A DNA stretch of 64,000 bases from Victivallales bacterium (GTDB lineage: Bacteria; Verrucomicrobiota; Lentisphaeria; Victivallales; JAUVCU01): assembly GCA_029934175.1 (NCBI GenBank), contig JAOZMT010000001.1, positions 19,286 through 83,285 on the forward strand, written 5' to 3'. Of the stretch, positions 2 through 45,556 are shown piece by piece. The position numbers were made by a program, and so were the translations under genes. Numbering within the stretch: position 1 is the stretch's first letter; the number at the start of each line of letters is the position of its first letter. The notes under the pieces are model-generated. The model ran no database searches, had not been told where the DNA came from, and worked only from the letters and a program-made list of their open reading frames with translations.

Positions 2-2014
2 AAAAAGATAGCTGTTCAAGAACTTTCCAAAATGGGTGAAGGTATGGCATATTATGTTGAACAGATTAAAAAAGCAGAAGATCCTTTAACTGCTATAATG
101 ACGGCGGTTGGAGTGTTAGGATTAGTAATGTATGATTTAAATGAAAGAGTAGAAGAGAGTAAAGATAGAGTAGAAAAACTTCATGAATCATTGAAAGAAA
201 AGTTAAATAAGAGTGTAGATGAACTTTTCGATGAATTAAAAGATTTAGTAATGTGTTGGTTGAATTTTAATAGAGCATTAAAAGAAGAAGAAGTAAAAAA
301 ATTGACTGATTCTTTAGATAAAATGACTAAAATTTTGAGAGCAATAGGAACTGATATATCTCCTAAAGTTATAATACAACTTAAGAAAATTTTCCTTTGG
401 ATTATACAATTAGCTAAAGCTGGGAAATTGTCATCAGCTGATCTTAGAACAGTTGTAGTTTCCTTACAGCAATTAATTTTAGCCATTCCAGAAGATAAAC
501 GTGCTGGAGTTCTTAATTGGTTTGCTAATATGTTGAAATTACTTGTAAGAATGGGAGTAATTGGCAAGAAAGATTTTGTGGAAATGGCTAAGGCATTGAG
601 ACAATGGGCAGCTTTATTACCAGATGAACAAGCTATAAGATTTCTTACAGTATTGATGGATTTGTGCCGTCAAATGGGCGTATTTGAGCAAGTATTTGGT
701 GAATTAGGAAAGACTATGATGAAAGTTCCAATTGCTGATCAATTGAAAAAATTACGTGATGAATTGACTAAGCTAGAGCCATTTGAAGCTTATACAAGAA
801 TTAGGATTAGACAGATTAATAGAGAAATTGCTGCAATGAGAAGACAGCGTCAAGAATATCAGAGACACGTTAATGCGTTGAATGTATTGATAGGTATGAA
901 ACAGAATTGGATGCGGACAAGCATTCAGGCTTCTGAAGAAGCTTTTGCTGCTGAAGAAAGAAGATGGATGCGTTGGGAAGGATTAACACAACAAGAAATA
1001 AAGACAGCAGAACAAGCAGAAAGATTAGTTAGTTATGCCCATCGTAGAGAATCAAGAGCGCAAGATTTGTATGTTAAGGCATTGGATTATAGGGAAAAAG
1101 CCTTAAGTTATTATCGTAAAGCGGCAGATTATGCAAGGAAAGGCGATGTACAAGCTGCTAGAGCTGCATTATCACAGGCTAATTTCTTCTGGCAAACATC
1201 CGAGCAATATTATAGTTTGACTGAAAGAAATTTACAACGTGCCATTTCAATACTTCAGCAAATTCCAGAAGGATTGAAGACGCCAGAAGTACAACAATTT
1301 ATAGATATGTTGAGAGATGATCTTGATGAGATTGCAGAAAAACGTGCTAGAGACATTGAAGATATTAAAGATGCTGAATCAGATAGTCTTGATATGCTTA
1401 TGCGTGAACGTGAAGAATATGAAAAACTTATTGATCAACTTGATAAAGAGATAGAACGTCAAGAAAAAATAGTAAAGAAATTTCAAGATGCATTGGATAA
1501 TATTTCATTACTTAGAACTGAATTTGAAGCAATCCAAAAAATAAAAGATATATATCCAAAAGTTGATTTCAGAGATTTAAATCAATTAATGAAAATTTTG
1601 GAAGATTATATAAAGAAATTGCAAAAGGCATTAGAATTACAGAAACAATTAGGAAAGACAAAACCAACTACACCGCCAACTGGTATGCAATTAGGTGGTT
1701 TAGTAACTGGATTTGGAACTGGCGATAGAATTCCAGCATTGTTAGAACCTGGTGAATTTGTATTGAAAAAGAAAGTTGTTGAATCATATGGTTTGAAATT
1801 CTTAAATGCCTTGAATAATTTACAATTTCCAAAAGAAATGTTTAGACCTTATCAAGGCGGTGGTGAAGTCCAAACAATTGAAGGAGTTAAAAGAACTGTG
1901 AATCTCAATTTAGTAATTGGAACAGAAACATTTCCAGTGGTGACTTCTGAAGAGGTTGCCAATAAATTAGAGAAATTTTTAACAAGAAAAAGATTAGTTG
2001 GAAGAAATGCTTAG
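2..2014 (+). CDS. tail tape-measure-like protein, 5'-truncated by the window edge
   Basis: The frame is open from nt 2 through the first ATG at 32, so the ORF probably starts upstream. Long E/K/R/Q/L-rich coiled-coil-type sequence. The Gly-rich C-terminal block GGLVTGFGTGDRIPALLEPGEFVLKK..FLNALNN resembles TMP C-termini. It lies directly upstream of baseplate and fibre genes. Confidence 0.55.
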   Translation, partial: KKIAVQELSKMGEGMAYYVEQIKKAEDPLTAIMTAVGVLGLVMYDLNERVEESKDRVEKLHESLKEKLNKSVDELFDELKDLVMCWLNFNRALKEEEVKKLTDSLDKMTKILRAIGTDISPKVIIQLKKIFLWIIQLAKAGKLSSADLRTVVVSLQQLILAIPEDKRAGVLNWFANMLKLLVRMGVIGKKDFVEMAKALRQWAALLPDEQAIRFLTVLMDLCRQMGVFEQVFGELGKTMMKVPIADQLKKLRDELTKLEPFEAYTRIRIRQINREIAAMRRQRQEYQRHVNALNVLIGMKQNWMRTSIQASEEAFAAEERRWMRWEGLTQQEIKTAEQAERLVSYAHRRESRAQDLYVKALDYREKALSYYRKAADYARKGDVQAARAALSQANFFWQTSEQYYSLTERNLQRAISILQQIPEGLKTPEVQQFIDMLRDDLDEIAEKRARDIEDIKDAESDSLDMLMREREEYEKLIDQLDKEIERQEKIVKKFQDALDNISLLRTEFEAIQKIKDIYPKVDFRDLNQLMKILEDYIKKLQKALELQKQLGKTKPTTPPTGMQLGGLVTGFGTGDRIPALLEPGEFVLKKKVVESYGLKFLNALNNLQFPKEMFRPYQGGGEVQTIEGVKRTVNLNLVIGTETFPVVTSEEVANKLEKFLTRKRLVGRNA

Positions 2015-2654: not shown

Positions 2655-2730
2655 TTGATATATCTAGAATTTCTGAAAATATCATTTAGAATAACCTGCA
2701 ATTGAATAGAATAAAGAATTCATAACTTCA

Positions 2731-2770
2731 GTCCCATTCTATAATCCAAGTCGGGTTATCAGAATGGGAC
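2731..2770 (+). terminator. long RNA hairpin (attenuator/terminator-like, no U-tract)
   Basis: Perfect 10-bp stem GTCCCATTCT / AGAATGGGAC. The 20-nt loop can pair further (ATAA/TTAT). It lies in the intergenic gap between ORF 2076 and ORF 2790. Confidence 0.3.
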
Positions 2771-2789
2771 GGATTATTGTCTATAAACA

Positions 2790-3164
2790 ATGGTAAAAAT
2801 TGACACAATAGAATTACCAGACCTAATTTGGGTAGATGAATTTGATTATCTATCCACATCTTCTTCCAAAGATAGAACTTTGGGATATAATGTCCTAGTC
2901 TGGTCTTCCAAGAATAAATTCCAAAGAAATATTACATTGCAAGGTGATGAAAATAGAGCTTGGCTGACAAGGAAACAAGTAAAAGAATTGGAAAAATTAG
3001 CTTCTATTCCAGATGCTGTATTTGATTTTGAATATAATGGGAAAAAATATAAAGTTAGATTCAGACATGAAGATGTTCCAATTGAAGTATATCCAATTTT
3101 GCCAAGAACTAATCCAGATGATAAAGATTATTATTATGGAACTATAAGATTACAAGAGGTTTAG
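2790..3164 (+). CDS. small tail-associated protein, stand-alone copy of the C-terminal domain of ORF 3172
   Basis: The whole 124 aa aligns by eye with the last ~125 aa of ORF 3172 (LIW.DEF, WLTRKQV, ASIP, YNGK.Y.VRFR.ED.P, PILPR.N..D.DYYYGTI.L). Confidence 0.75.
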   Translation: MVKIDTIELPDLIWVDEFDYLSTSSSKDRTLGYNVLVWSSKNKFQRNITLQGDENRAWLTRKQVKELEKLASIPDAVFDFEYNGKKYKVRFRHEDVPIEVYPILPRTNPDDKDYYYGTIRLQEV

Positions 3165-3171
3165 TTTTTTT

Positions 3172-4770
3172 ATGGGGTGGTTAAGTAATTGGCAATATAG
3201 AAAAAAAATTACCATTCAAGGACAATCAGGTGCTGGAACTGATTATCAAGTACTACTCAAAGTTGGAGAAAGTTCTGGCGCTTCAGGATATGATTTTCAT
3301 GTAGAAGGGCACTCAGCTAATTTTCCAAGTGATAAGAACCAATCTGGCGATTTACGTTTCACTAAAAGCGATGGTACTACTTTACTAAAATTTTGGGTAG
3401 AAAAAGTAGAAGGAACATCTCCTAATCGTGTAGCATATTGCTGGGTAAAAATTGAAGATAATCTTGATAATAATGTAGATATTTATTGCTATTATGGTAA
3501 TTCTAGTACAACTAATGTAAGTAGTGGTGATGATACTTTCCTATTATTTGATGATTTTAATGGTTCTAATTTAGATACGAATAAATGGAATGAGCTTAAC
3601 TCAGGACCTTTATCATTTAGTAATAGTATAATGAGCATAAAAAGTGATACTGAAAATACGAATCATGATATTTATTCGAAAGATGCATTTTCTTATGGAC
3701 ATTGTTTGAGAGGACGGGTGGCAATTAAACAGAAAACATGTTTTGCTTTTGAAAATTCCAATCATACTGAAGGTGTTTTGGAATGGTATGATGCTAGTGA
3801 TAATTGGAACTTTGGTGTTAGAACAGGTGGATCACTTAATTTTGATAGTCTTGGCAGCGCAGATATTGGTGCGTGGCATATAGATGAAATTATATACAAA
3901 TCAGGTGAAGGAAAATTACGTCGAGATGGCGTTGATAAAGCTACTAAAACTTCAGGAGTACCTACTATTGCCCTTCCTGTTAATAGTCGGAGTTGGTCAA
4001 GTACGAACGAGATACAAGTTGATTGGATCGCTGTTCGTAAGTATATTTCTCCAGAACCATCCTTTTCTTCAGCTTCAGGTGAAGAAAAAGAAGTAACAGA
4101 AACTTACGCAATTAATGTATTATTGCAGAATTTAGAGAATAAAAATTATAATATAGATTTATTAGTAAAGAAAATTTTGGATAAAAATTATGATATAAGC
4201 ACATTATTGCAAAAAATTATATATAAGAATTATAATATAAGTTCGTTACTACAAGAATTAATAAGTAAAAATTATGATATAAATTTGTTAATACAACATC
4301 TAAATATTTCTTTTGATTGTTTAATTAATGCTTTATTTCAAGCTACAAAATCATATTCGTATAATCTTGAAATTTCGTTATTTGATACTAATTATATCTT
4401 TTTTGATGGCATGATATTGCAATTAATTTGGAATGATGAGTTTAATAATTCAGAAATAGACGCAATTAAGCGATTGACTTTAGCACAAAGTTATAATATT
4501 CAAGAATTTAATGTATGTGAAAAACCAATTACTTTGGAAGCTACGGAAAATCAAGGTTGGTTAACTAGAAAACAGGTAGAAATGCTTTATCAAAAGGCAT
4601 CAATTCCAAATAAGACATATCCATTGATATATAATGGAAAGCATTATTTAGTTAGATTTAGATGGGAAGATCCACCAGTTATTGATGTAACGCCTATTTT
4701 GCCAAGGCCAAATATGGCAGATGATGATTACTATTATGGAACCATAAAATTAATGCAAATATTAAGATAA
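3172..4770 (+). CDS. DUF2341 + LamG-like fibre/adhesin protein
   Basis: The N-terminus W.YRKKITI..GDLRF..WVK..YCYYGN matches the DUF2341 signature. It is followed by a DDFNGSNLDTNKW concanavalin/LamG-like region and the linker RKYISPEPSFSSAS. Then come four 14-aa KNY.I..LL repeats and a C-terminal ORF2790-like domain. Confidence 0.85.
   Translation: MGWLSNWQYRKKITIQGQSGAGTDYQVLLKVGESSGASGYDFHVEGHSANFPSDKNQSGDLRFTKSDGTTLLKFWVEKVEGTSPNRVAYCWVKIEDNLDNNVDIYCYYGNSSTTNVSSGDDTFLLFDDFNGSNLDTNKWNELNSGPLSFSNSIMSIKSDTENTNHDIYSKDAFSYGHCLRGRVAIKQKTCFAFENSNHTEGVLEWYDASDNWNFGVRTGGSLNFDSLGSADIGAWHIDEIIYKSGEGKLRRDGVDKATKTSGVPTIALPVNSRSWSSTNEIQVDWIAVRKYISPEPSFSSASGEEKEVTETYAINVLLQNLENKNYNIDLLVKKILDKNYDISTLLQKIIYKNYNISSLLQELISKNYDINLLIQHLNISFDCLINALFQATKSYSYNLEISLFDTNYIFFDGMILQLIWNDEFNNSEIDAIKRLTLAQSYNIQEFNVCEKPITLEATENQGWLTRKQVEMLYQKASIPNKTYPLIYNGKHYLVRFRWEDPPVIDVTPILPRPNMADDDYYYGTIKLMQILR
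3190..3558 (+). repeat. DUF2341 cassette, DNA-level copy 1 of 4
   Basis: Long runs are identical in nucleotide sequence to 6228-6593 and 7227-7595 (for example ggtgctggaactgattatcaagtactact, gaaagttctggcgcttcaggatatgattttcatgt). Confidence 0.9.
4100..4345 (+). repeat. tandem 42-bp (14-aa) intragenic repeats KNY(N/D)I..LL......
   Basis: Four consecutive KNY-initiated 14-residue units are visible in the translation, with flanking degenerate units. Confidence 0.8.
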
Positions 4771-4787
4771 AATGGAGGTTTAAAATC

Positions 4788-6188
4788 ATGGCAATATCTA
4801 GATCAGATATTGTATTTGTAAAATCAGAAACAGTTACAGATAGCAATACAAATGGTGGCAGAAAAAGTTATATTGAAATTCCCAATAGGACGAAGTATAA
4901 TTTATTTCCACGTGTGACTAAACCTGAGAGAGATAATGGAATTACAAGATACAGAAAAGAATTTATTTGGAATAAAAATGCTGATAATGAAAGTGTTTTC
5001 GGTGCTATGATTTACTTGCTATTTCCTTCACCCGCAAATGATAGATTTTATTTAGCTTTAGGAACACAGACTGATGTTCAAGGCGATATAGATGATAGTT
5101 ATAAATGGTATTCAGGTGGAAAATTAAATGCTGATGTAACTGCTGGTTCGCAGCAAATCCAAATCTTATTTGAAAGTAATGATGTTTATATTGACAATGA
5201 CCTTTACATTGCGATTTCTTCACAATTCAAAACAAACCAGACTATAGATAGTGGTGTTAAACCGTTTGATCCAGTCTATTATAATGGAAGTAAATGGATA
5301 AAGCAATCTGCACCAAGCCCATCTCAAGAAGATAATTATCCTTATGGAACATATTTGGGCAATAATGTAGTTTTCACTTATCATTCTGAAGGTCATATTG
5401 AATATATAAAAACTGCTAATGACAAATATGAAAATGAAAATTTAAGCGGTTCAGGTTCTGGCCCTTATACTGGACAAAATGGTGGAAAATTATTACATCC
5501 ACCAATAAAAAAACAGACTGTTACTGTTAAATATGCATTTAATGGTATTGATTATGAAGCTACTGATGATGGTAATGGAAACATTACTGGGACAAATGTT
5601 TCAGATGGTAGCGTAAATTATGAAACTGGTGAAATTAGTATAACATTTTCCGATACACCAGATTCTACGCCAACAGTTGATTATTATAAAAGATGCTATA
5701 CTTGGTCTGGTAATGTTTGTACCATAAATCTTGCGGATCAAGTTGCTAATAGTTATAATGCAGACAATACTTATTGTGGCATTTGTCTATCACTTGGCGA
5801 AATAAAAACAAGTCTTTCAGATGTAACTGTGAATTCTGCAAATGGTAATTTTGATGAATCAAAAGTTTCATTAGATAATCAGGGGACTGTGGAAGATACT
5901 TGGACTTTAACTTTTACAGATAGTTCACATTTTACATGTAGTGGTTCACTTGAAGGAAATGTAGGTACAGGAACAATTACATCTAATTTTTCACCAACAA
6001 ATACCAATACATCTAAACCATATTTTACAATAGATTCTACCGCTTGGTCTGGAAGTTTTGAAGCCAATGATAAAATTACATTTAAGACACATCCTTCTGC
6101 CAAAGGAATTTGGTTGAAAGAAGTTGTACCAGCAGGCTCAGATGCATATAGTAACAATGGTATTCTCATGGAAGTTTATATTGAATAA
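4788..6188 (+). CDS. hypothetical tail/baseplate structural protein
   Basis: 466-aa ORF with GGAGG 9 nt upstream. Ser/Thr/Asn/Gly-rich beta-type composition. It is embedded between fibre genes. Confidence 0.75.
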   Translation: MAISRSDIVFVKSETVTDSNTNGGRKSYIEIPNRTKYNLFPRVTKPERDNGITRYRKEFIWNKNADNESVFGAMIYLLFPSPANDRFYLALGTQTDVQGDIDDSYKWYSGGKLNADVTAGSQQIQILFESNDVYIDNDLYIAISSQFKTNQTIDSGVKPFDPVYYNGSKWIKQSAPSPSQEDNYPYGTYLGNNVVFTYHSEGHIEYIKTANDKYENENLSGSGSGPYTGQNGGKLLHPPIKKQTVTVKYAFNGIDYEATDDGNGNITGTNVSDGSVNYETGEISITFSDTPDSTPTVDYYKRCYTWSGNVCTINLADQVANSYNADNTYCGICLSLGEIKTSLSDVTVNSANGNFDESKVSLDNQGTVEDTWTLTFTDSSHFTCSGSLEGNVGTGTITSNFSPTNTNTSKPYFTIDSTAWSGSFEANDKITFKTHPSAKGIWLKEVVPAGSDAYSNNGILMEVYIE

Positions 6189-6209
6189 ATTTGATTGGGA
6201 GGATTAGAA

Positions 6210-9200
6210 TTGAGTTGGTTATCCGATTGGCAATATAGAAAAAAAATCACAATACAAGGCCAATCTGGTGCTGGAACTGATTATCAAGTACTACTAAAAG
6301 TAGGTGAAAGTTCTGGCGCTTCAGGATATGATTTTCATGTGGAAGGCCATTCAGCTAATTTCCCTAGTGATACTAACCAATCTGGTGATTTAAGGTTCAC
6401 TAAAAGCGATGGTACTACTTTACTAAAATTTTGGGTAGAAAAAGTAGAAGGAACATCACCTAATCGTGTAGCATATTGCTGGGTAAAAATTGCTGATAAT
6501 TTAGATAACAATGTAAATATTTATTGTTATTATGGTAATCCTAATGCTGACAATGTAAGTAATGGTGATGATACTTTCATTTTCTTTGATGATGCCTCAT
6601 CCAATAAATCAGCTAATTATGAGTGGGTGGACATTTATGACACTCCATTCTCACCCGTGTTGTTTTATGACTCGGCAAATAAGGAATATGATCTGTCCCA
6701 TTCTGATCACGATAATGAATTTCTCAAAATCAAGGATGTGGCAATATCCAATGTTTGTGCCAGAGCCAAGTTCAAGATCACTGATTCAGAACCTACTAAT
6801 CCAAACGATCAATTTGGTTTTTTTCTAAGACATTCTGGCCTTGCAAGGCCTAATGATAAGGGTTATCTTCTTCGATTCAATAGATTCACCGAGCCAAATC
6901 GTATTAGTATTCATGCAGAAGATGGCGGAATTAATGAGACGAGCCTTGCAACAGCTAATCTTTCCGAAAATATCAATTTAAATGATTTTTATGAATTTGA
7001 AGCTAAAGTTTATGGAAATAATTTTTCTTGTTCAATAAGAAAATTGGATGGCACTGAATTAGCTTCTACATCTGCATCTGATTCTACGTATAATTATGAT
7101 AAAATTGCTGTACAATTTGCTTATCATCAAACTACTAAAGTTTCATTCAAGGATTTAATTATTAGAAAATACATTTCTCCAGAACCATCTTTCTCTTCAG
7201 CTTCAAGTGAATTAAATACAAGTAATTGGAATTATAGAAAAAAAATTACCATTCAAGGACAATCTGGTGCTGGAACTGATTATCAAGTACTACTAAAAGT
7301 AGGTGAAAGTTCTGGCGCTTCAGGATGCGATTTTCACGTAGAAGGCCATTCTGCTAACTTTCCAAACGATACTAATCAGTCTGGCGATTTGCGTTTCACT
7401 AAAAGTGATGGTACTACTCTATTAAGCTTTTGGGTAGAAAAAGTTGAAGGCACATCACCTAATCGTGTAGCATATTGTTGGGTAAAAATTACTGACAATC
7501 TTGATAATAATGTAGATATTTACTGTTATTATGGTAATTCTGGTGCAACTAATATAAGTAATGGTGATGATACTTTCATTTTCTTTGATGATTTTCAGGG
7601 TTCATCACTTGATTCTAACAAATGGGACGGTGATGGCAGTTATTCAGTGGCCGATGGCCATATTACCTTGCAGGCAGGTGGAAATATAAAGTCGAAGAAT
7701 GAATTTGCAATGGAGAACACTACAGTTGAAGCGTTGGTCAAAGTCGATTCTAACTACAGATTGTTACTTGCATATATGGAGCGCAAAGTTCAGTATGATG
7801 TGCCTGGCTCATCTTTTGGAGAATGGCAGTTATGGGATAATAGTGGAAACAAATTAGATCATTTTGATGGATTAGATCCTACTGTTGGTTCATATCAATG
7901 GTGGAAATTACGATATCTTTCGAACGAAATTAAAATTTACTTGGATGCTGATTATGTTGGTAATTTTTCCGATTCTTATAGAACAACTTCTAAAGTTGAA
8001 GCTTATCATTGGTATTCTGGAACAACAGAAATTGATCAATGTCGTATAAGAAAATATATTTCTCCAGAACCATCTTTTCTTTCAGTTTCTACTGAACAAT
8101 TAAATAAATTGAATGTAACCGATTGGCAATATAGAAAGAAAATCACCATCCAAGGCCAATCTGGCGCTGGAACTAATTATCAGGTATTGCTTAAAGTAGG
8201 AGAAAGTCTTGCTCCATCTAGTGCTGATGATAACTTTGATGATAATATAATAAATACTTATTTATGGAAGAAGATAATACATGGCAATAATGTAAAAATA
8301 GAAGAGAAGAATGGAAGGATAGAAGCTTCAATAACTGCTACTGAAGGAACGAATTATGGTCTTTTACAAAGTAAATTTCATTTATCTGGTGATTTTGATA
8401 TCCAAATAGATTTTTCAAATTTAAATCTAGAAAATAAAAATTTCACATTTGCTCGTGGTTTCGAAGTAGTAGTCGATTCATTAAATTATGCCTATTGTCA
8501 ATTGCAGTATGCAAGTGGTACTGGACGAGCATATCATGCTGGAATTAAAGTTAATGGAAATGAAACTTATAATGATATATCTTCAAGTCATACTTCTGGT
8601 AAATTTCGAATTACCAGACAAGGTCAGACATTAACTTGTTATTATTGGGATGGTTCTGATTGGCAGCAGATTCATCAAAGAACAGATTTTTCTACTGAAA
8701 ATGTTTATGTAAATACTTGTTATGTATATAATACTAATCAATGTGGTCAAGTTTCAGTTCATTTTGATAATTTTAAAGTCAATGAAGGAACAATTTTAAA
8801 TTTAAAGCCATTTGATTTTGACGTAGAAAGTCATTCTGCTAACTTTCCTAATGCTAATGATAATTTCGACGATAATATAATAGATAGTTATCTATGGAGA
8901 AAAATAATAAGTGGTAATGTTACTTTAGAAGAGCAAAATGGAAGAATAGAAGCTTCAATATCAGCAACGTCTGGAACTAATACTGGTAAATTAAGAAGTA
9001 AATTTTTCTTGTCTGGTAATTTTGATATCCAAATAGATTTTTCAAATTTGAATTTAGAAAGTAAGGAATTCGGTTTCATACGTCTAGCAATAACTGTTGA
9101 TAGTGACAATTATGCTTATTGCCAAAGAGAATATAGAAATTCTTATGGTCATAATTATTATGCTGGGATTAAAATCAATGGCAGCGAAACCGATGGTCAT

Positions 9201-12200
9201 GTAAGCACGTCTGATACTTCTGGCAAACTTCGAATCACCAGACAAGGTCAAACATTAACTTGTTATTATTGGGATGGTTCTAGTTGGCAACAAATTCATC
9301 AAAGAACAGGCTTTTCGACTAATGATGTCTCAATATCGATTTGTGAAATATATAGTTCTGCTGATCATCCTCAAATATCAGCTTACTTTGACAATTTTAA
9401 AATTAATGAGGGAACAGTTTTAAAGCCGTCAAGCGGTGATTTAAGATTTACAAAAGATGATGAAGTCACTCTATTAGACTTTTGGGTAGAAAAAGTAGAA
9501 GGGACAAGTCCTAATAGAATAGCTTATGTATGGGTAAAAATTTTAGATAATTTAGATAACAATGTGAATATTTATTGCTACTATGGTAATCCTAATGCTA
9601 ATAATGTAAGTAATGGTGATAATACATTTATTTTCTTTGATGATTTTGAAGGAACAGATATTGATACTAATAAATGGACTTTTGTTCAAGGTACTCAAGG
9701 TAATGGAAATTATTCGGTATGGGCTAGTGTTTTAAGCTGGACTCATTTGCCATTTGGAATAAAATACGCTCATGCTGCTTTAGGCAATGCTGCATTACGT
9801 GCACGATACTATCAATTGAATCCAACTGATCATGGCTCTGGTCTTGTTTGGAGAAATGACGTAGAGAATAAGGCAATATTTAATATTTGGAGAGATACAA
9901 ATGATTTGGTTAGGCTTATTGAGACTAATCAAACTGCGCATGATGTTAGTGATAATTTAACTTCTTGGGGTATTCTTGAATTTCTAAAAGATCAAAATGA
10001 CAATATTTCAATCTATTTAAATAGTCGCCAGCAGAATGGATCTTATATCAATTCTTATGATTTAGATGCACTTTATATAGGAAATCGAGGAGAAGCTTCT
10101 TCTTATGATGCCTCGGATTTTAAGTTTGATTGGATATTAATACGTAAGTACATTTCTCCAGAGCCTTTGTTTAGTTCGGTAGGAAATGAGGAAGGAATTG
10201 GAGTTGAAACATATTCTTATAACTATCAGGCCGATTCATTTATAATTCGTTGTATTGATTCAAGTTTGCCATTAGATTCGTTACTTTATCCTTTCCAAAG
10301 AAAATTAGTAAGGAGATCCGATGGTTCTTTTATTGCAGTTTACCATAAGGAAATTAATAATGTTTGTCAAATTTTCTTGGCTTCATCTAATGATAATGGT
10401 ATTACTTGGTCTTCCATACAAATAACAAATAGTTCTTATGATCAAAAATATCCAGCAGTAATAGTAGATACGGAAGATGATGTTCACTTAGTGTGGTTAT
10501 CACAAATTGATTCTAATACTTATAAAATTGCATATGAGTGTCAGTTAAATGGGCAATGGCAAGATACAGAAATTATTGGAGACGCTGTTGAAAATTCAGC
10601 ACCGACAATTACTTTTTCTAATAAAAATGATAATATAATTTACGTAAGTTGGCATAGTCTTGGCAATGAAATTTCTATAAGAAAAAAAATAAATGATTCT
10701 TGGCAATCACCGCATGAATTTTCAACGGGAATTGAACAATTATTTCCATGTATTACAGTTGATAATGATGCGAAATATCATTTAGTCTGGTCTATAAAAA
10801 AAGCGGAAGACCAACCTTATCAAATAGTCTATTCGAATGAAAATAGGTTTCCAGATAAAGATGTACTTGCAGAATCAGAAGGAAATAATTATCCCATAAT
10901 TTTAATCGATTTGAATAATAATATATATGTTTGTTGGCGTGATAAAGGATATGGTAATAATCCTAATTATTATAATATAGTCTATAGAAAAAATGATGGT
11001 AATGGATGGACTAATATTCAAAATATTTCGGATGAAGACCATAATCAATTAGCACCTTCTGCTTCTGCTACAATTGAAAATGATATTTATGCAGTTTGGT
11101 CTGGACTTGGATGGCAAAATAATCCAACATTTTACAATATACAGTATAGAAAATCTGGCCAATCAATTCAATCGGTAACCGATATAGATAGACATCAATG
11201 GTTTCCTAATACTATTTATTCATTATATCCAAAAGTATTTGGAATACACACTAATGTTCCAAAGCAAGGATTTGGTTTTATTTGGCTAGACGATATATAT
11301 CTGAAATTTTACAATTTCAATTTGGATTGGCAATCAGCAATTTGGAAACATTATTCTGTCGATGTTTTATTAGTAAATAAAACAACTAATTTATTAGATG
11401 TTTTATTACGAAAGTTTTTTACTTTAGATTATTCACTAGATTTATTATTGGAGAAACATATTGGTACTATTATTAAAGAAGATGTCACTAATGAAAATCT
11501 TAAATCACAAAGAAGATTAATTAGAAAAGATAATAATTTATACTGTGTTTACATATATAATAATCAGTTATATTTGGCTACTTCTGATGATAATGGCCAA
11601 ACTTGGACAGAAGGACAAGTTACAAATGAAAGTAATCCACAGTCTGAACCTGATATTGCAGTAGATAGTGAAGGATATATTCATATTGTTTGGGTCAATA
11701 ATGGTAATATTTATTATATTAGAAGAATTGAAGAAGGATTTAATACACCTATTCAAATAACTACTGAAGGTGATCAACATTCACCTATAATTATTATTGA
11801 TGCAAATGATAACGGTTATATAACTTGGTATGGAAAAACTAATAATACTTATAACATTTATATTGCTTATTTAAATACGGCTACAGGTCAGATCACGAAT
11901 ATAGAACAAATAACTAACAATAATTTATATGATCAAATCAATCCAATCTTAGCAATAGATGGCTCTTATTTACATCTTATTTGGACAGGAAAAGGTTATG
12001 GTTCTAATCCAAATTTCTATAATTTGCAATATAAACGCAAAGCTTTAGATGGTAATTGGTATCCACAAGAGAACATTACTGATAAACCTTATGATCAAAA
12101 TTTTCCTTCTGCAATTGTGGATTTAGATGGAAATTTAAATGTTGTTTGGCAAGGCAAAGGTTGGGGAAACAATCCAAATACTTGGAATATAATTTTTAGA

Positions 12201-15200
12201 AAACGTACTGCTGCAACTTCGGTCTGGGAAGATGAAGAAATAATTACTGATAAAGCAGAAGATCAAATTCAACCTTCAATAAGTGTAGATAGTTATTCTA
12301 ACATTAATGTCATTTGGACTGGAAAAGCATGGGGATTATTTACGAATCATTTTAATATTCAATATAAACAAAAAACTGCAAGTGCTTGGTCTTCAATAAG
12401 ACATATAACTGATACTTCAAATGATCATTATTGGCCAAATTTTATTTCTAGTATTTATCCAATAATTGATGAAGTACATACTAACATTCCCAAAACAGGT
12501 TATGCTTTTAGTTGGATAGATAAAAGTGATTTAAGATATTATGTTAGTTCAGATTTAGAATGGGAAATACCAGAAAATAAATTTTTGATTGCACAAAATA
12601 TAGATTATTTAGGACAACATCCTTTAGCAAGAGATTCCGATGGAAGATTATGGATTGCATATTCTAAAAAAATAGGTGATTATTATCATATTTTTGTTGC
12701 ATATTCAGAAGATAATGGAAAAACATGGATTGAAGAACAGATTACATCAGGAAATAGGCATCAGAAATATAGCTCCATTGTAATAGATTCATTGAATAAT
12801 ATACATTTGGTTTACTTAGATTGTACGGATCAGTTAAATATTTGTTATAAAAAAGGAAAATTTGGAAATTGGTCAGATGCTGAAATAATAGATACTAGTT
12901 TAGAAGAATTTAATCCAATAACTATTGCAATAGATAGTCAAGATAATATTCATGTTGCATGGAAAAAGTTTGATACTACGGAAAATTTGACCTATATAGC
13001 ATATAAGAAGAAAACCGAAAGTGGATGGCAAAATCTAGAAGAAGCAAGTCCTAAGCATAATTATGATGATTATCCTTACATTGCCATTGATGATAATGAT
13101 AATGTGCACTTAGTTTTTACGGGAAAATATGGGATAAATGGCCATTCCAATGTCCAATATAGAAAAAGGACTAGTTCTGGTTGGCAATCTAGAATAGCTC
13201 TTGAGAATGTAGATTATGAAAGTGAAAATTGTTATCTTTGCTTAGATGATGATGGAAATATTTACGTGTCTTGGAATAGTGGTGCAAATATTTATACTAG
13301 AAGCTATATAAATGGCGAATGGAAAGATAAATATAAACTTACCAATTTGCCAGAAGGAACAGATTTGGTTTCCAAAATTCCCACTTTATCTTCAACCAAG
13401 GGTGGGAAAATACATGTAATATATATAGGAATGACAGAAGATTCGCCGACGCCAATGTATTATCATTCAGAAAAATCTGTAGCAACAACTGATTGGTCTG
13501 ATTCTGAAAATATTTTGGATATATATTCATATTATGAAGGGCCAGAGAGATTGATTTGGGCAAATTGGCCGCAAATATCTTATTTTAAGCCTAATAGACC
13601 AAAATCTGGTTATGCTTTTGTTTATGAAGATTTATTTAATAAGGAATTATGGTTTTTTAGAAGTTTAGATTTGAAATGGGATAAGTTTACTACTGCGACT
13701 GAAAGATTTATACTTTCTTATATCAAATGTAATTTATTAACTGAATCTTCTGTAAATTATCAAGTGGATTTACTGAATTTAAAAGAAAAGTTATGTCAAT
13801 ATAATGTTGATAGTTATTTATGTCTTGCTAAATTATTGAACATTGAAGCATTATTATTAAAGGAACTTTATAAATCTTATGATATAGATTTAAAATTTGT
13901 TGGGATGAAAAAATTAAATGTAAATACTTGCTTGCGCAAGCCAAACATATTAGAATATAATATTGATATGTTCATTATAAAAGATGGTGTGATTTTTTCA
14001 GAAACATTATTAAAAGGTAAAGCAGACTATAATTATTTTTTAGATACTTTGATTCAAGAATTAAATAAAACTTCAAATTATAATGAAGATGTCCTTTTGA
14101 AAATTGAAAAAAGTATAAATCTAAATATAGATTCAATTTTAAAACCTACTAAAAGCTTTGATTTAGACATTTTGTTAAAAGGTTTCGGAATAGTATTGAA
14201 TTATCCAATTGATATGTGTATTAATGATACATATATTTCACAGTTTAATATCGATTCAATTTTGAGTACTTTTGGTAATAAATCTTATTCGGTTGATATG
14301 TTAATTCCAACATTGAACCGTAATGTGATTTCAATTGATATGATTATATCAAATAAATTTACAAAGTCACTTTCATTATCTAATTCTTTAGTTTATAATT
14401 TTAAATCAACCGTTCTTCTACCTTTCTTATTAGATTTAAGAAATGTTTTAATTAATGAATTACTTTCACCAAAATACAAAGGATTTTATTTGAGAAATTC
14501 AATAGCTAATGTTGATATTTTTAAGTCATTGAGTTTAGTTAATAGCTATGAAAAATTTGCAGCAAATCAATCATTGATAAATGAATTGTCAGAAGTATTA
14601 AATAAAATCTTGTATTTATTAAACGCATTGGCCAATATTAATATTGAAAATCGTCAATTTATTGTTAATTCATTACAGCAATTAGTAAAAACTAATCAAT
14701 TACAAAATGAATTAGGTGATGCTTTTTCTTCGATATTAGCGATTTTGAATGATTTAGTTAAACCAATAAGTAAGACAGAAACGATATCTTCTGATATCCT
14801 AAATTATTTAGTAACAAATCAATCATTAAGAAATGAGCTTTCGTATTTGTATCCTTCAGAGCAACAAATAGAAGGAGAAGAAATTTGTACAAGATTTTTG
14901 GAATATAACGATTGGGATATCAAATTAGACGGAACTTCTATAAAAGATAAAGTAACAGAAATTAATGTTTATAGAAGGGAAAGTGAAATTTTCAATCATA
15001 TAGAACTTACAATAGTTGATCCTAAGTTATTTAAGCAATGTGATCCATATTATAATAGTGGATTAGAAAGAATTGAACTAAGGACTAATGACAAAACTAT
15101 GAAATTTTTACTTGAAAGTAGAGAAGGTTCCGAAGAAAATCGTGAATTTAGTATTTGGGGAAGATGCAAAGCAGCAATCTTATCAGAACCATTTTCCATA

Positions 15201-16301
15201 AAAACTAGCTATGTAATTAAAGATAAGAAAGCAAGTGAAATAGCAAAAGAACTTGCAGGAAGTATTGATGTAGATTGGCAAATTTATGATTTTTATGTGA
15301 AAGAATTTACTTATGAAGGCTATCCAATTGACGGAATTTCAAGATTAGCAGAAGTAATAGGTGGTATAGTAAGAACAAAATCTGATGGTTCATTGTTAGT
15401 TAGGTACAAATTTCCAGTAAGACCTAAAGATTTACAAAATGTTAATGCAGTTTATGAATTAGATAGATATTCCAATTTAGTTTCGCTTGACTATAGCGAA
15501 GAAGCGGCGCTGTACGATTCAGTAGAAGTTCGTGGTGCTGATTATTCGGAAATGCAAACTTATTTTTCAATTGAAACAGATAAGACTTGTTTTGAAATAG
15601 GAAAAGAAGATGCAATATTAAGAGTTTATAAATATCCATTTGATGTTGACTATACTGTTTTTTCAACAGATGGGGAAATTACTAAGATAAGCTCTAATAA
15701 AACAGAAGAAATTACAGAAAATATTAATATTGAAAATGAATCTGGAAGTACATCTAAATATATTGATATTTTGACTTCATATGAATGGATAGGTAATATT
15801 AAGAAGAAAAATGAGAAAGAACCTTTGGGAAGTATTGAATTTGATGGAAATAATATTCAATGTACTAATTGTGCAGGCGCTTATCTAAGAGTTAATTATA
15901 AGACTAAATATGATGAATGGAAATTATCATGTGATAAAGAGACGGAAGTTAAATCTATTGTAATTGTTCCAGAAGGTGAAACTGTTGTTTTGAATGTTGT
16001 TATTGGTGACGGGAATAGACCTGCATCTCCAATTCAAGATGAATTGATTACTGAAGAATATATGGCAGTATTAAGAGGACAGGCATTTCTTGATGATAAT
16101 TATTATCAAAAAATAAAACATACTGTGAAGTTACCATATGTAGATATAGAAGATGGTCAAGTTGTTTCATTAGCTGATGATTATTATAATTTATATGGCA
16201 ATTATTTAGTAAAGCAAAGCGATATTAATATTACATTAGAAGAAGATACTTTGAAAATTTGGCTTTCGCTAAATATTGAGAAGTATAGAAAGGTGCTGTA
16301 A
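6210..16301 (+). CDS. giant modular tail fibre / adhesin fused to a hub-like C-terminal domain (3363 aa from TTG 6210)
   Basis: Uninterrupted ORF. GGGAGGA at 6197-6203 is followed by TTG at 6210. That start gives (M)SWLSDWQYRKK, colinear with MGWLSNWQYRKK of ORF 3172; the track start at 6195 is also TTG. Contents in order: four DUF2341+LamG-like modules each ending in RKYISPEP, three propeller units with Asp-boxes S.D.G.TW, a 13-15-aa repeat shaft, and a C-terminal ~470 aa gpD/gp27-like region. Confidence 0.9.
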   Translation: MSWLSDWQYRKKITIQGQSGAGTDYQVLLKVGESSGASGYDFHVEGHSANFPSDTNQSGDLRFTKSDGTTLLKFWVEKVEGTSPNRVAYCWVKIADNLDNNVNIYCYYGNPNADNVSNGDDTFIFFDDASSNKSANYEWVDIYDTPFSPVLFYDSANKEYDLSHSDHDNEFLKIKDVAISNVCARAKFKITDSEPTNPNDQFGFFLRHSGLARPNDKGYLLRFNRFTEPNRISIHAEDGGINETSLATANLSENINLNDFYEFEAKVYGNNFSCSIRKLDGTELASTSASDSTYNYDKIAVQFAYHQTTKVSFKDLIIRKYISPEPSFSSASSELNTSNWNYRKKITIQGQSGAGTDYQVLLKVGESSGASGCDFHVEGHSANFPNDTNQSGDLRFTKSDGTTLLSFWVEKVEGTSPNRVAYCWVKITDNLDNNVDIYCYYGNSGATNISNGDDTFIFFDDFQGSSLDSNKWDGDGSYSVADGHITLQAGGNIKSKNEFAMENTTVEALVKVDSNYRLLLAYMERKVQYDVPGSSFGEWQLWDNSGNKLDHFDGLDPTVGSYQWWKLRYLSNEIKIYLDADYVGNFSDSYRTTSKVEAYHWYSGTTEIDQCRIRKYISPEPSFLSVSTEQLNKLNVTDWQYRKKITIQGQSGAGTNYQVLLKVGESLAPSSADDNFDDNIINTYLWKKIIHGNNVKIEEKNGRIEASITATEGTNYGLLQSKFHLSGDFDIQIDFSNLNLENKNFTFARGFEVVVDSLNYAYCQLQYASGTGRAYHAGIKVNGNETYNDISSSHTSGKFRITRQGQTLTCYYWDGSDWQQIHQRTDFSTENVYVNTCYVYNTNQCGQVSVHFDNFKVNEGTILNLKPFDFDVESHSANFPNANDNFDDNIIDSYLWRKIISGNVTLEEQNGRIEASISATSGTNTGKLRSKFFLSGNFDIQIDFSNLNLESKEFGFIRLAITVDSDNYAYCQREYRNSYGHNYYAGIKINGSETDGHVSTSDTSGKLRITRQGQTLTCYYWDGSSWQQIHQRTGFSTNDVSISICEIYSSADHPQISAYFDNFKINEGTVLKPSSGDLRFTKDDEVTLLDFWVEKVEGTSPNRIAYVWVKILDNLDNNVNIYCYYGNPNANNVSNGDNTFIFFDDFEGTDIDTNKWTFVQGTQGNGNYSVWASVLSWTHLPFGIKYAHAALGNAALRARYYQLNPTDHGSGLVWRNDVENKAIFNIWRDTNDLVRLIETNQTAHDVSDNLTSWGILEFLKDQNDNISIYLNSRQQNGSYINSYDLDALYIGNRGEASSYDASDFKFDWILIRKYISPEPLFSSVGNEEGIGVETYSYNYQADSFIIRCIDSSLPLDSLLYPFQRKLVRRSDGSFIAVYHKEINNVCQIFLASSNDNGITWSSIQITNSSYDQKYPAVIVDTEDDVHLVWLSQIDSNTYKIAYECQLNGQWQDTEIIGDAVENSAPTITFSNKNDNIIYVSWHSLGNEISIRKKINDSWQSPHEFSTGIEQLFPCITVDNDAKYHLVWSIKKAEDQPYQIVYSNENRFPDKDVLAESEGNNYPIILIDLNNNIYVCWRDKGYGNNPNYYNIVYRKNDGNGWTNIQNISDEDHNQLAPSASATIENDIYAVWSGLGWQNNPTFYNIQYRKSGQSIQSVTDIDRHQWFPNTIYSLYPKVFGIHTNVPKQGFGFIWLDDIYLKFYNFNLDWQSAIWKHYSVDVLLVNKTTNLLDVLLRKFFTLDYSLDLLLEKHIGTIIKEDVTNENLKSQRRLIRKDNNLYCVYIYNNQLYLATSDDNGQTWTEGQVTNESNPQSEPDIAVDSEGYIHIVWVNNGNIYYIRRIEEGFNTPIQITTEGDQHSPIIIIDANDNGYITWYGKTNNTYNIYIAYLNTATGQITNIEQITNNNLYDQINPILAIDGSYLHLIWTGKGYGSNPNFYNLQYKRKALDGNWYPQENITDKPYDQNFPSAIVDLDGNLNVVWQGKGWGNNPNTWNIIFRKRTAATSVWEDEEIITDKAEDQIQPSISVDSYSNINVIWTGKAWGLFTNHFNIQYKQKTASAWSSIRHITDTSNDHYWPNFISSIYPIIDEVHTNIPKTGYAFSWIDKSDLRYYVSSDLEWEIPENKFLIAQNIDYLGQHPLARDSDGRLWIAYSKKIGDYYHIFVAYSEDNGKTWIEEQITSGNRHQKYSSIVIDSLNNIHLVYLDCTDQLNICYKKGKFGNWSDAEIIDTSLEEFNPITIAIDSQDNIHVAWKKFDTTENLTYIAYKKKTESGWQNLEEASPKHNYDDYPYIAIDDNDNVHLVFTGKYGINGHSNVQYRKRTSSGWQSRIALENVDYESENCYLCLDDDGNIYVSWNSGANIYTRSYINGEWKDKYKLTNLPEGTDLVSKIPTLSSTKGGKIHVIYIGMTEDSPTPMYYHSEKSVATTDWSDSENILDIYSYYEGPERLIWANWPQISYFKPNRPKSGYAFVYEDLFNKELWFFRSLDLKWDKFTTATERFILSYIKCNLLTESSVNYQVDLLNLKEKLCQYNVDSYLCLAKLLNIEALLLKELYKSYDIDLKFVGMKKLNVNTCLRKPNILEYNIDMFIIKDGVIFSETLLKGKADYNYFLDTLIQELNKTSNYNEDVLLKIEKSINLNIDSILKPTKSFDLDILLKGFGIVLNYPIDMCINDTYISQFNIDSILSTFGNKSYSVDMLIPTLNRNVISIDMIISNKFTKSLSLSNSLVYNFKSTVLLPFLLDLRNVLINELLSPKYKGFYLRNSIANVDIFKSLSLVNSYEKFAANQSLINELSEVLNKILYLLNALANINIENRQFIVNSLQQLVKTNQLQNELGDAFSSILAILNDLVKPISKTETISSDILNYLVTNQSLRNELSYLYPSEQQIEGEEICTRFLEYNDWDIKLDGTSIKDKVTEINVYRRESEIFNHIELTIVDPKLFKQCDPYYNSGLERIELRTNDKTMKFLLESREGSEENREFSIWGRCKAAILSEPFSIKTSYVIKDKKASEIAKELAGSIDVDWQIYDFYVKEFTYEGYPIDGISRLAEVIGGIVRTKSDGSLLVRYKFPVRPKDLQNVNAVYELDRYSNLVSLDYSEEAALYDSVEVRGADYSEMQTYFSIETDKTCFEIGKEDAILRVYKYPFDVDYTVFSTDGEITKISSNKTEEITENINIENESGSTSKYIDILTSYEWIGNIKKKNEKEPLGSIEFDGNNIQCTNCAGAYLRVNYKTKYDEWKLSCDKETEVKSIVIVPEGETVVLNVVIGDGNRPASPIQDELITEEYMAVLRGQAFLDDNYYQKIKHTVKLPYVDIEDGQVVSLADDYYNLYGNYLVKQSDINITLEEDTLKIWLSLNIEKYRKVL
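6228..6593 (+). repeat. DUF2341 cassette, DNA-level copy 2
   Basis: Near-identical nucleotide runs shared with 3190-3558 and 7227-7595. Confidence 0.9.
7227..7595 (+). repeat. DUF2341 cassette, DNA-level copy 3
   Basis: Near-identical nucleotide runs shared with 3190-3558 and 6228-6593. It is preceded by the conserved linker coding for RKYISPEPSFSSAS. Confidence 0.9.
8124..9646 (+). repeat. DUF2341 cassette copy 4, split into three pieces by two tandem paralogous ~195-aa inserts
   Basis: The DUF2341 pieces are 8124-8207 (WQYRKKITI..VGES), 8808-8852 (PFDFDVESHSANFPN) and 9432-9646 (SGDLRFTKDDE..YCYYGN..FFDDF). The inserts 8208-8807 and 8853-9431 both run DNFDDNII..YLW.KII .. RITRQGQTLTCYYWDGS.WQQIHQRT .. 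FDNFK.NEGT. Confidence 0.85.
10270..13685 (+). repeat. three tandem ~355-aa BNR/sialidase-like beta-propeller modules (approximate limits 10270-11335, 11497-12570, 12586-13685)
   Basis: Each unit has one canonical Asp-box (SSNDNGITWS, TSDDNGQTWT, YSEDNGKTWI). Each also has repeated blades of the form D..(D/N)..H(L/I)VW and G(K/L)G(Y/W)G.NPN.(Y/W)N(I/L).(Y/F)(R/K)K. Confidence 0.75.
13700..14870 (+). repeat. ~390-aa array of short-period (13-15 aa) repeats, core (N/S)Y.(V/I)D.(L/I)(L/I)
   Basis: The translation shows NYQVDLL, QYNVDSYL, SYDIDLKF, EYNIDMFI, NLNIDSIL, SFDLDILL, NYPIDMCI, QFNIDSIL, SYSVDMLI and VISIDMII at regular spacing. Shorter versions occur at 11350-11465 and 4100-4345. Confidence 0.7.
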
Positions 16302-16302
16302 A

Positions 16303-16536
16303 ATGAAATTATTAGATTTAATCAAACCAGAAATAATAGAAAATGGTACAATTATTGCATATAGTGGTTCAAATTATTTAGTTAAAATTGGAAATAATAC
16401 AGTTAAAGCATTTGGTGCTAAAGGTTTTCAGGTTAATGATAATGTTGTTGTTGGAAAAGTTAATGATCAATATTTAATCTTGACAAAAACTTCTTCTTTT
16501 GCTAAGAAAATTAAGACAATAAGAATTCAAGGGTGA
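16303..16536 (+). CDS. small beta-rich baseplate protein (possibly gpV/spike OB-like)
   Basis: The ATG at 16303 lies 1 nt after the giant ORF stop; the track start at 16276 overlaps that ORF. The pattern G.I...........VK.G......F...GF.V.D.V.VGKV resembles small spike/OB proteins. The family call is weak. Confidence 0.6.
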   Translation: MKLLDLIKPEIIENGTIIAYSGSNYLVKIGNNTVKAFGAKGFQVNDNVVVGKVNDQYLILTKTSSFAKKIKTIRIQG

Positions 16537-45490: not shown

Positions 45491-45500
45491 AAAGTGGGTA

Positions 45501-45528: not shown

Positions 45529-45556
45529 ACATCTTAGATTTAGTTTGGAGGTGATC

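Follow-up and report, generated by a model that had tools for sequence, protein, structure and literature searches.

We think it likely that the locus described here codes for the distal region of the tail, in contact with the host, of an uncultivated tailed virus, and that its adhesin units are exchanged by recombination or gene conversion in a way that alters the binding of host glycans. That it is a further example of an established type of phage adhesin locus, modular and recombining, is well supported. The locus lies in a stretch of 64,000 nt (GC content 29.7%), hereafter the window, whose coordinates are used throughout; all the tail features given below are on the + strand.

The window opens with a gene for the C-terminal part of a tape measure protein (32..2014; tape measure matches to phrog_3547 and phrog_23013), whose full-length homologues in contigs L001 and L031 have 1883-1930 aa and a PhageMin_Tail domain. 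This gene identifies the locus as a tail module, and the modular region considered here is directly downstream of it. A 124-aa protein (2790..3164; phrog_4408, E = 4.6e-27) is a paralogue of the C-terminal domain of the fibre (47-48% aa identity in relatives), and the DNA repeats D10 and D11 connect its gene with the C-terminal part of the fibre gene. The fibre gene itself (3172..4770, 532 aa) encodes, in this order, one unit (unit A), a run of 14-aa repeats and a conserved phrog_4408-like C-terminal domain. The repeats, of NYNID type (4138..4296; period 42 nt, 3.8 copies according to TRF), likely form the shaft; their copy number differs between relatives, with a much longer run in the L002 fibre. 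Fibre homologues in relatives range from 226 to 606 aa and are variable at the N-terminal end alone.

Between the two modular genes lies ORF 4788 (4788..6188), which codes for a conserved tail protein of 466 aa (94-97% aa identity in close relatives, 78% in L018 and L019, 53-59% in distant ones) and was the anchor with which most relatives were fetched. The giant tail gene (6195..16301, 3368 aa), whose true start is probably the TTG at 6210, preceded by GGAGGA, encodes three units, three BNR/sialidase-like β-propellers, a repeat region and a conserved C-terminal domain. The propellers (10227..14054) are paralogous to one another (25-31% aa identity) and score above threshold for both PF13088 (E = 9e-15; 55.2 bits, cutoff 31.4) and PF15892 (32.4 bits, cutoff 27.3). 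The C-terminal ~400 aa (15075..16298), presumably the baseplate anchor, are 88-96% identical in close relatives and are the part that aligns (32-46% aa identity) with distant relatives, whose homologues of the giant protein have 726-943 aa and include an ORF4788-like stretch.

The initial annotation had pointed to a recurring segment of ~370 nt in this region, and its coordinates check out: the segment is a DUF2341 cassette of ~375 nt, present as direct repeats at the start of ORF 3172 (cassette A, 3184..3561; PF10102 E = 2.4e-22, 79.6 bits against a cutoff of 23.4) and in the giant ORF 6195-16301 (cassette B, 6222..6599; cassette C, 7221..7598), which scores 195 bits for PF10102 in three stretches. 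The longest exact runs are 62 nt for A-B, 67 nt for B-C and 32 nt for A-C. The copies had been called near-identical, which is overstated, since they are 85-90% identical in DNA (87.6% for A-B, 88.4% for A-C and 85.4% for B-C over the 378-nt frame) and 90% in protein, with dS of 0.39-0.53. The resemblance does exist at the level of DNA and not merely of protein, as had been proposed: where the residue is the same, 75-82% of codons are identical between cassettes against 55% expected (z = 4.8-6.3), more than protein conservation and AT-rich codon usage would give. The DUF2341 domain and the linker that closes each unit are at the same time under strong purifying selection (dN/dS ~0.12 for the cassette paralogues), and the dS of these paralogues is comparable to that of ORF 4788 orthologues among relatives (0.23-0.43).

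A fourth copy had been overlooked. This split cassette, D* (8121..9644; pieces 8121-8207, 8811-8849 and 9432-9644), is interrupted by two DUF1583-like inserts, E1 (8208..8810; DUF1583-C 31 bits, cutoff 22.9) and E2 (8850..9431), which are paralogous (66% aa identity); the region is 96% identical at the nucleotide level in L030, and a loop-2 insert like that of D* is also present in L024, L031, P0122 and P0126. The RKYISPEP linker recurs, as the initial annotation had claimed, at four sites, linker 1 (RKYISPEPSFSSAS, 4036..4077), linker 2 (7164..7205), linker 3 (8049..8090) and linker 4 (10143..10196), and the linker pattern has five matches against 0.34 expected by chance.

Within these frames lie the variable modules, cores A (3550..4035), B (6588..7163), C (7587..8048) and D (9639..10142), which begin at 3562, 6600, 7599 and 9645 when counted from the end of the preceding cassette, and here the earlier observation that the adjacent LamG-like segments are unrelated is confirmed: pairwise comparisons of the four revealed no similarity beyond a start of ~14 residues (DDFxGxxLDxNKW) in A, C and D, and core-core nucleotide identity is that of shuffled controls. 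Conserved motifs thus flank unrelated segments, as in modular phage adhesin loci.

The unit with core A, the only core modelled, gives a confident AF2 model (pLDDT 96.5, pTM 0.93), in which the core is predicted to be a ConA/GH16-like β-jelly-roll; Foldseek matches it to GH16 glucanases and CBM66 (E 2e-8 to 1e-6, TM-score normalised to the target up to 0.77). Family HMMs give no match above threshold for the cores, core A reaching 20.6 bits for the ConA-like family PF13385, below the cutoff of 27.6, and cores B, C and D having no Pfam match. Cassette A is modelled as a β-sandwich (pLDDT 92), for which no solved structural relative was found, and linker 1 contributes β-strands (280-290 and 297-301) that close the unit. 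A regular-expression search of the fibre and giant proteins for the GH16 catalytic motif (ExDxxE or ExDx(x)E) had no match, which argues against identifying the cores as GH16 hydrolases and makes a lectin-like role more likely than a hydrolytic one. Fold and gene position together suggest that the cores bind receptors, probably host glycans; core swaps may then alter host range.

Deletion and swap variants, which had been suggested as a check, do occur in related genomes, with junctions at the frames. Close relatives, 79-97% identical to the window in flanking DNA, differ at exactly the units made of a DUF2341 domain and a core. Across these viruses the fibre gene varies between having no unit and having core A, C, F or G: L001, L003, L014 and L030 lack the whole unit (window 3162-4118), L030 being otherwise 96-97% identical to the window, and other cores follow a conserved DUF2341 domain in L018 and L019 (core F), L025 (core G) and L020 (core C). 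The arrays of the giant gene differ too. The window has [B][C][D*] and L030 has [C][H][D*]; a single unit stands in L014 ([H]), in L024 (B, with a nested insert) and in L031-L040 (A-like, likewise with a nested insert), and L002 and L017 have no unit at all. Where the array is shorter than in the window, the alignment with the BNR part is taken up again around linker 4 (at 10151 in L014, 10158 in L024, 10217 in L020 and 10290-10296 in L002 and L017).

The same core can moreover be found in different places. Core C, in the giant gene here, belongs to the fibre gene in L020 (85% aa and 82.9% nt identity); L030 has it in the giant gene, within unit 1. Core A, in the fibre gene here, has a relative on the giant gene of L031. 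Core B has copies in L001 and L024 (81-85% aa identity), and cassette B has orthologues in L001 and L014 (89-91% identical). Beyond the family, an unrelated contig, L004, carries unit A with 93.6% nucleotide identity over 876 nt, the identity stopping at the cassette start and inside the linker, and an unrelated virus pair, L005 and L007, presents a clean core swap, with unrelated cores of 564 and 672 nt between flanks that are 95.8% and 99.7% identical. One exchange that had been envisaged, a deletion by which ORF 4788 is lost and ORF 3172 joined to the giant ORF, was seen in no relative, most of these having been fetched by means of ORF 4788.

These variants largely refute the view that old segmental or tandem duplications suffice, constraint and AT-biased codons having kept the DUF2341 copies similar while the cores diverged with no continuing recombination. 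The low dN/dS and the dS of the cassettes, too high for recent copies, are what such a view predicts, and codon bias alone would already make 55% of codons identical at conserved residues. We nevertheless consider it very unlikely, because cores at shuffled-control identity adjoin cassettes that are 85-90% identical, with an abrupt shift over ~30 nt (against relatives, identity falls to random at ~3580/6588, where ...TFxFFDD ends, and is regained at 4020, DWIAVRKYISPEP), and because cores C, A-like, H and B occupy different genes and array positions in genomes that are 87-97% identical elsewhere. Furthermore, the window is 100% identical to L018 over 4020-4259 next to flanks that are 79-90% identical, the cassette copies are mosaic, with significant runs of shared polymorphisms in a Sawyer-type run test (p = 0.0002 for B-L004), and the cassette tree is out of step with gene position.

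Our reading is therefore one of continuing exchange, with natural chimeras whose exchange points lie in or beside conserved motifs. The proposal of the initial annotation that modules are exchanged by homologous recombination fits the variants at the frames and the mosaic cassettes; the homologous mechanism itself we infer, crossovers being in our opinion guided by homology. The copies are 10-15% diverged and their longest exact runs are 62-67 nt, a point against this reading, since efficient RecA-type recombination is therefore not guaranteed.

The joins could instead be illegitimate, made by Ku/ligase end-joining or template switching, with selection keeping those that are in frame at domain boundaries, so that the conserved DNA would be a consequence of exchange and not its substrate. 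Two proteins of the virus, Ku (30709-31416) and an ATP-dependent ligase-like one (39844-40536), could support end-joining. The breakpoints, at the first and last jelly-roll strands, are structural domain borders and could reflect selection for foldable products; in L004, unit A is followed by one NYDLD repeat and then by an unrelated C-terminus, which has the look of an illegitimate join, and the N-terminal domain in L021 is not DUF2341. We think this scenario unlikely all the same: there are no indels or scars at junctions within the frames, array variants remain in register, the cassettes contain mosaic tracts as expected from gene conversion, and synonymous identity exceeds the codon-usage expectation.

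All the sequences are metagenomic contigs from samples with several related strains, and one may ask whether ~370-nt repeats of co-occurring strains led the assemblers to misjoin reads from different strains or genes. There are frameshifts in core C of L030, and the exact combination of the window (unit A on the fibre, B-to-C junction) was not found in full a second time. It is matched piecewise, however, by L004, L001 and L030, at 91-96% identity, long ORFs are intact across all junctions, and no exact stretch in common exceeds 67 nt. The same architectures were also assembled independently from different samples (L018 and L019, L005 and L006, L042 and L043, and 23 contigs of the L031 genotype). 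An artefact of this sort seems highly improbable to us.

Programmed diversification, by a diversity-generating retroelement, an invertase shufflon or phase variation, has a superficial resemblance in its favour, conserved repeats standing beside variable adhesin segments, and is hardly credible on other grounds. A retroelement was rejected: mismatches between copies have no adenine bias, cores are unrelated sequences and not mutated copies, the sole YxDD motif in a long ORF belongs to a phiEco32-like ligase homologue and not to a reverse transcriptase, and the subset of ORFs scanned gave no match to a reverse transcriptase or an invertase. An invertible shufflon of the Cin or Min type was discarded as well, the cassettes being all direct repeats and inverted repeats weak and at chance level.

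The exchange of modules that we favour would work as follows. Two tail proteins would be held in place by conserved C-terminal domains and carry one or more exchangeable adhesin units at their N-termini, each unit consisting of a conserved DUF2341 β-sandwich, a variable ConA/GH16-like jelly-roll, presumably the glycan-binding core, and a conserved closing strand and linker DW..VRKYISPEPSFSS. At the DNA level the frames stay 85-94% identical, whether compared inside the genome, from one of the two genes to the other or across co-occurring viruses, and therefore provide portable homology. In a tandem array, a linker and the next DUF2341 domain would form a ~440-nt block between successive cores, and recombination or gene conversion within such blocks could add, delete, replace or relocate cores, so that the tail would bind different surface glycans.

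'Evolved' Dit and Tal proteins of Gram-positive siphophages offer one comparison: carbohydrate-binding modules are inserted in these baseplate proteins as extensions, conserved tail-tip proteins having acquired lectin-like β-sandwich modules in loops or at their ends. The E1 and E2 inserts in DUF2341 loops and the N-terminal accretion of units recall this, although the host proteins and folds differ, and we know of no repeated DNA-conserved frame common to several genes in those systems. The organisation, presumably not the sequence, also resembles that of the T-even gp37/gp38 adhesins, in which conserved motifs, for example glycine-rich ones, alternate with hypervariable specificity segments (PMC3157838). 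According to that source, which cites Tétart et al. (1996, 1998), natural and laboratory chimeras have their exchange points in or near conserved motifs and draw on a common pool of interchangeable binding segments. Here too, conserved motifs flank variable segments and chimeras break there, but the frames are a whole DUF2341 domain of ~125 aa plus linker, the variable parts are whole jelly-roll domains of ~155-190 aa instead of loops, the units are N-terminal with a conserved C-terminus, and they stand in tandem arrays on two different genes.

The domain mosaicism of receptor-binding proteins is a further parallel, Smug et al. (2023; PMC10684548) describing ongoing module shuffling in tail fibres, tailspikes and other host-interaction proteins of otherwise unrelated phages; our virus likewise has DUF2341-lectin units in common with L041, a contig of an HK97-type virus, and with the 203-kb contig L042. 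A search of the accessible literature found no report of DUF2341 units in the context of phage adhesins; the domain is mentioned in work on archaeal type IV pili and on Patescibacteria. Cellular DUF2341-LamG surface proteins, such as those of MshQ type (type IV pilus loci) or those associated with pili in archaea or Patescibacteria, share PF10102 with the viral proteins, commonly followed by a ConA-like domain, and database homologues P0192 and P0206 have pilin-like N-termini. Unlike them, the proteins studied here are virion tail components, encoded downstream of a tape measure gene and fused to BNR propellers and tail-anchor domains.

A broader idea, which we put forward tentatively and with more doubt than belief, is that DUF2341 is a dedicated lectin docking scaffold, whose frames are gene-converted across virus lineages as a community-wide currency for host-binding modules. 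DUF2341 may accept lectin domains after its C-terminus and, as in the E1 and E2 inserts, inside two surface loops, and gene conversion may maintain the similarity of its coding sequence from gene to gene and between unrelated virus lineages that live in the same community. Such lineages would include this virus family, the HK97-type virus, which shares a bin with a DPANN (Aenigmatarchaeota) genome, and the 203-kb jumbo-like virus. If this were true, the trade in modules could involve viruses of DPANN archaea or other ultrasmall hosts, and perhaps cellular DUF2341 adhesins as well.

The locus lies in AT-rich DNA (the GC content of the window is 29.7%), where a fragment of a tape-measure gene (32-2014, phrog_3547) is followed downstream by five genes: ORF 2076, ORF 2790 (2790-3164, 124 aa, phrog_4408), the fibre gene ORF 3172 (532 aa), ORF 4788 (466 aa) and a giant ORF (6195-16301, 3368 aa). 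For the giant ORF the listed start is TTG 6195, but translation from TTG 6210, after a GGAGGA at 6198-6203, would yield MSWLSDWQYRKK; the fibre and database homologues have matching N-termini, and we therefore consider 6210 the likelier start. At its other end, ORF 16276-16536 represents a small gene of its own, with its start at ATG 16303; the idea that it is a phrog_4408-like domain frameshift-fused to the giant ORF was rejected for want of similarity (E = 0.08 over 12 residues). The stand-alone ORF 2790 and the fibre's C-terminal domain (4420-4761) are paralogues (~48% aa), a kinship still traceable in the DNA (repeats D10/D11), and this paralogy suggests that they share a docking structure in the tail. 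Upstream of ORF 2790 the intergenic region contains a relatively GC-rich hairpin, GTCCCATTCT-N20-AGAATGGGAC (2731-2787; core 2731-2770), which is exactly conserved in 11 related loci; L004 (4778-4834), a contig otherwise unrelated, has it with ~93% identity, there too upstream of a gene near a DUF2341 gene. This hairpin, for which an Rfam scan gave no match, may act in regulation or termination, or it may be a small mobile element. Between the homologues of ORF 2076 and ORF 2790, relatives have a Zn-ribbon/HNH-like ORF of 238-241 aa (9070-9795 in locus L001, 7560-8276 in locus L002) that is missing from the window (2654-2790) and looks like a homing-endonuclease-type gene, present or absent between relatives.

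The initial annotation had claimed that the fibre and giant genes share near-identical DNA cassettes, substrates for module shuffling. Repeat finding and a self dot-plot bear out its repeat coordinates: a DUF2341-coding segment of ~375 nt (A, 3184-3561) recurs at B (6222-6599) and C (7221-7598), and RKYISPEP linkers are found at 4036, 7164, 8049 and 10143. Over a 378-nt frame the three cassettes have 85-88% nucleotide and 90% amino acid identity, the longest exact runs reaching 62-67 nt, and matches to DUF2341 (PF10102) have E = 2e-22 and 2e-58. Where residues are identical between copies, 75-82% have identical codons, versus 55% predicted from the codon usage of the window (z = 4.8-6.3), and the similarity is therefore genuinely at the DNA level. 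"Near-identical" is nevertheless too strong, because the copies have diverged (dS 0.39-0.53, dN/dS ~0.12). The segments beside the cassettes are indeed mutually unrelated: cores A-D, between cassette and linker, have only a short DDFxGxxLDxNKW start in common, and their nucleotide identity is at the level of shuffled controls. The borders of the modules are exact (…TFxFFDD / core / DW..VRKYISPEP).

A fourth DUF2341 copy, here D*, which lies in the giant gene, had been overlooked. It consists of three pieces (8121-8207, 8811-8849 and 9432-9644), with two DUF1583-like domains, the paralogues E1 and E2 (66% aa identity), between them; these jelly-roll domains sit within loops of DUF2341 (8121-9644). 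The insert site in loop 2 (after ...HSANFPN) is found again in several relatives (window 8121-9644, loci L024 and L031, database proteins P0122 and P0126), and the loop-1 insert (after ...KVGES) occurs only in the window and in locus L030.

Residues 1-307 of ORF 3172 were modelled from an alignment of 79 sequences. The resulting model of unit A (cassette, core and linker) is compact and very confident (pLDDT 96.5, pTM 0.93), and the "linker" is no floppy tether in it: it forms β-strands that close the unit. In Foldseek the core A model matches GH16 glucanases, CBM66 and other ConA-like jelly rolls (E = 2e-8). A role as a GH16 enzyme was rejected, as a search of the proteins gave no catalytic motif, and for this reason a lectin-like role seems the better guess from the model. 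DUF2341 alone is modelled as a β-sandwich (pLDDT 92) with no significant solved structural neighbour (best E = 0.05). Pfam recognises core A only below threshold, and none of cores B-D.

With ORF 3172 and the conserved ORF 4788 as anchors, we collected ~30 related loci from IMG/VR, JGI and ENA assemblies, the backbones of which are 79-97% identical to the window. The N-terminus of the fibre is DUF2341 with core A in the window, with core F in L018/L019, with core G in L025, and with core C in L020 (85% aa to unit 2 of the giant gene of the window). In L001, L003, L014, L030 and L031-L040 the fibre has no unit (~226 aa; window 3162-4118 is missing), L002 also has none, yet has many more 14-aa repeats (L002 9887-11314), and L021 has a different, non-DUF2341 N-domain. 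These repeats (42-nt tandem repeats, NYNID-type) make up the middle of the fibre (4138-4296), and their copy number differs strongly between relatives, as in fibres of 226 aa and 475 aa that both lack the DUF2341 unit; NY.ID repeats of a similar kind are also found late in the giant protein.

The giant-gene array varies as well. It reads [B][C][D*] in the window, [C][H][D*] in L030 (96-97% identical to the window on both sides), [H] in L014, [B] with an E-type insert in the DUF2341 loop in L024, and an A-like core (69% aa) with an insert as in L024 in L031-L040; L001 begins with [B] where its contig ends, L002 and L017 have no array, and L020 has an extra propeller in its place. In distant relatives the protein has 726-943 aa and aligns only over the conserved C-terminal ~400 aa (32-46% aa) and, in most, an ORF4788-like stretch. 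Frameshifts and stops break the core C region in L030 (3783-4765, called as products of 156 aa and 1123 aa), either by sequencing error in an older assembly or because the unit is decaying. L002 has four genes beyond the set of the window, one of 331 aa before the fibre gene (L002 8870-9865) and three (177, 190 and 196 aa, the last two paralogues) between the fibre and the ORF 4788 homologue (L002 11333-13043), and the locus therefore varies by whole-gene cassettes too. A deletion variant without ORF 4788, which had been predicted, was found neither among the related loci retrieved nor in IMG/VR with ORF 3172 and ORF 2790 as anchors.

Window 1-25000 had no megablast match among 50,697 GenBank phage records, and tblastn gave only remote matches (27-37% aa), two methanogen-virus records among them. 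The relatives are binned as "bacterium", Nitrospirae, "uncultured archaeon" and Aenigmatarchaeota. On the minus strand the window encodes a Ku-like protein (30709-31416) and an ATP-dependent DNA-ligase-like protein (39844-40536), a possible end-joining pair; it also has two phiEco32-like COOH-NH2 ligases (38007-39494 and 45494-46996), Lon protease, SNF2 helicase, ArdC, a DruA-like protein and methylases. The Lon, SNF2, Ku, ligase, ArdC, DruA-like and methylase genes point to no particular host. An HK97-capsid virus contig that was binned with a DPANN archaeon (L041; GCA_038999735.1, an Aenigmatarchaeota MAG) also has DUF2341-lectin genes, in its tail region, and three consecutive copies are present in a 203-kb jumbo-like contig encoding gp32, RecA and RtcB (L042/L043); the unit type is therefore common to unrelated virus lineages.

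Swap variants with junctions at the cassettes were found in related genomes, the breaks falling at the cassette end and the linker. Identity is high through the cassette, falls to random at ~3580 and ~6588, right after …TFxFFDD, and picks up again at 4020 (DWIAVRKYISPEP). L018 and the window agree at 100% of positions over 4020-4259, with flanks at just 79-90% identity. Unit A is found in the unrelated contig L004 with 93.6% nucleotide identity over 876 nt, its limits being the cassette start and the linker. In another virus type, L005 and L007 (the latter labelled hydrothermal vent) have flanks 95.8% and 99.7% identical around unrelated cores (564 vs 672 nt), with breaks at the end of DUF2341 and at RKRVDPEP. 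That assembly chimerism generally explains such architectures is unlikely, because identical ones recur in independent samples, even if the full unit combination of the window itself is confirmed only in parts.

The cassettes are themselves mosaic. A Sawyer-type permutation test on five copies shows that runs of shared polymorphisms are significantly long (B-L004, p = 0.0002; A-L004, 0.008; A-B, 0.013; B-C, 0.013), the nearest neighbour of a cassette switches along its length, and the cassette tree is at odds with gene position. Unit 1 of L030 is finely mosaic relative to B, C and the L020 fibre copy, and a clean single B-like/C-like crossover was rejected for it. Within the window, paralogous cassettes differ about as much from one another as orthologues of different viruses do; judging from the sequences, this and the mosaicism would be expected from repeated gene conversion and relocation of units. 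A DGR is excluded, since the cores are unrelated and the mismatch spectrum is unbiased, as is an invertase/shufflon system, the repeats being in direct orientation and the cores unrelated.

The best-supported reading of these sequences is that DUF2341 and the linker would flank the interchangeable lectin-like cores with portable homology. In the arrays they form a contiguous block of ~440 nt, and recombination in such blocks would add, remove, replace or move cores, whether inside the giant gene, from fibre gene to giant gene or back, or from one co-occurring virus to another. Natural variants that break at the frames and the mosaic cassettes thus support recombination-driven module exchange, as initially proposed; we infer that homology guides the crossovers. 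A minor alternative is that the joins were illegitimate and that selection then kept those with intact domain borders; in its favour, the virus encodes Ku and a ligase-like protein, and L004 and L021 resemble non-homologous joins. Both proteins are conserved at the C-terminus (the phrog_4408-like domain of the fibre, the last ~400 aa of the giant protein), so that the variable end is N-terminal and presumably distal.

Our locus follows the classic pattern of T-even tail-fibre adhesins, in which specificity segments lie between conserved motifs and the exchanges take place in or close to these motifs (PMC3157838); domain mosaicism in phage receptor-binding proteins (PMC10684548) is the broader picture into which it fits. 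No new principle is involved, recombination at conserved motifs in phage adhesins being known since the T-even work. What is new is the DUF2341 building blocks, the whole-domain cores, the tandem arrays, one frame on two genes, the domain-in-domain inserts, and the occurrence of this unit type across unrelated virus lineages (L041, L042). There is almost no literature on DUF2341, and we found none linking it to viruses; the locus would give this uncharacterised domain a first concrete role, as a conserved scaffold presenting ConA-like lectin domains on virus tails. The locus is an unusually clean natural record of a virus rebuilding its host-binding apparatus, with the same frames and a dozen alternative contents, variously combined, in genomes otherwise up to 97% identical, and with these module borders, binding specificities could be engineered or predicted for the uncultivated viruses of these metagenomes.
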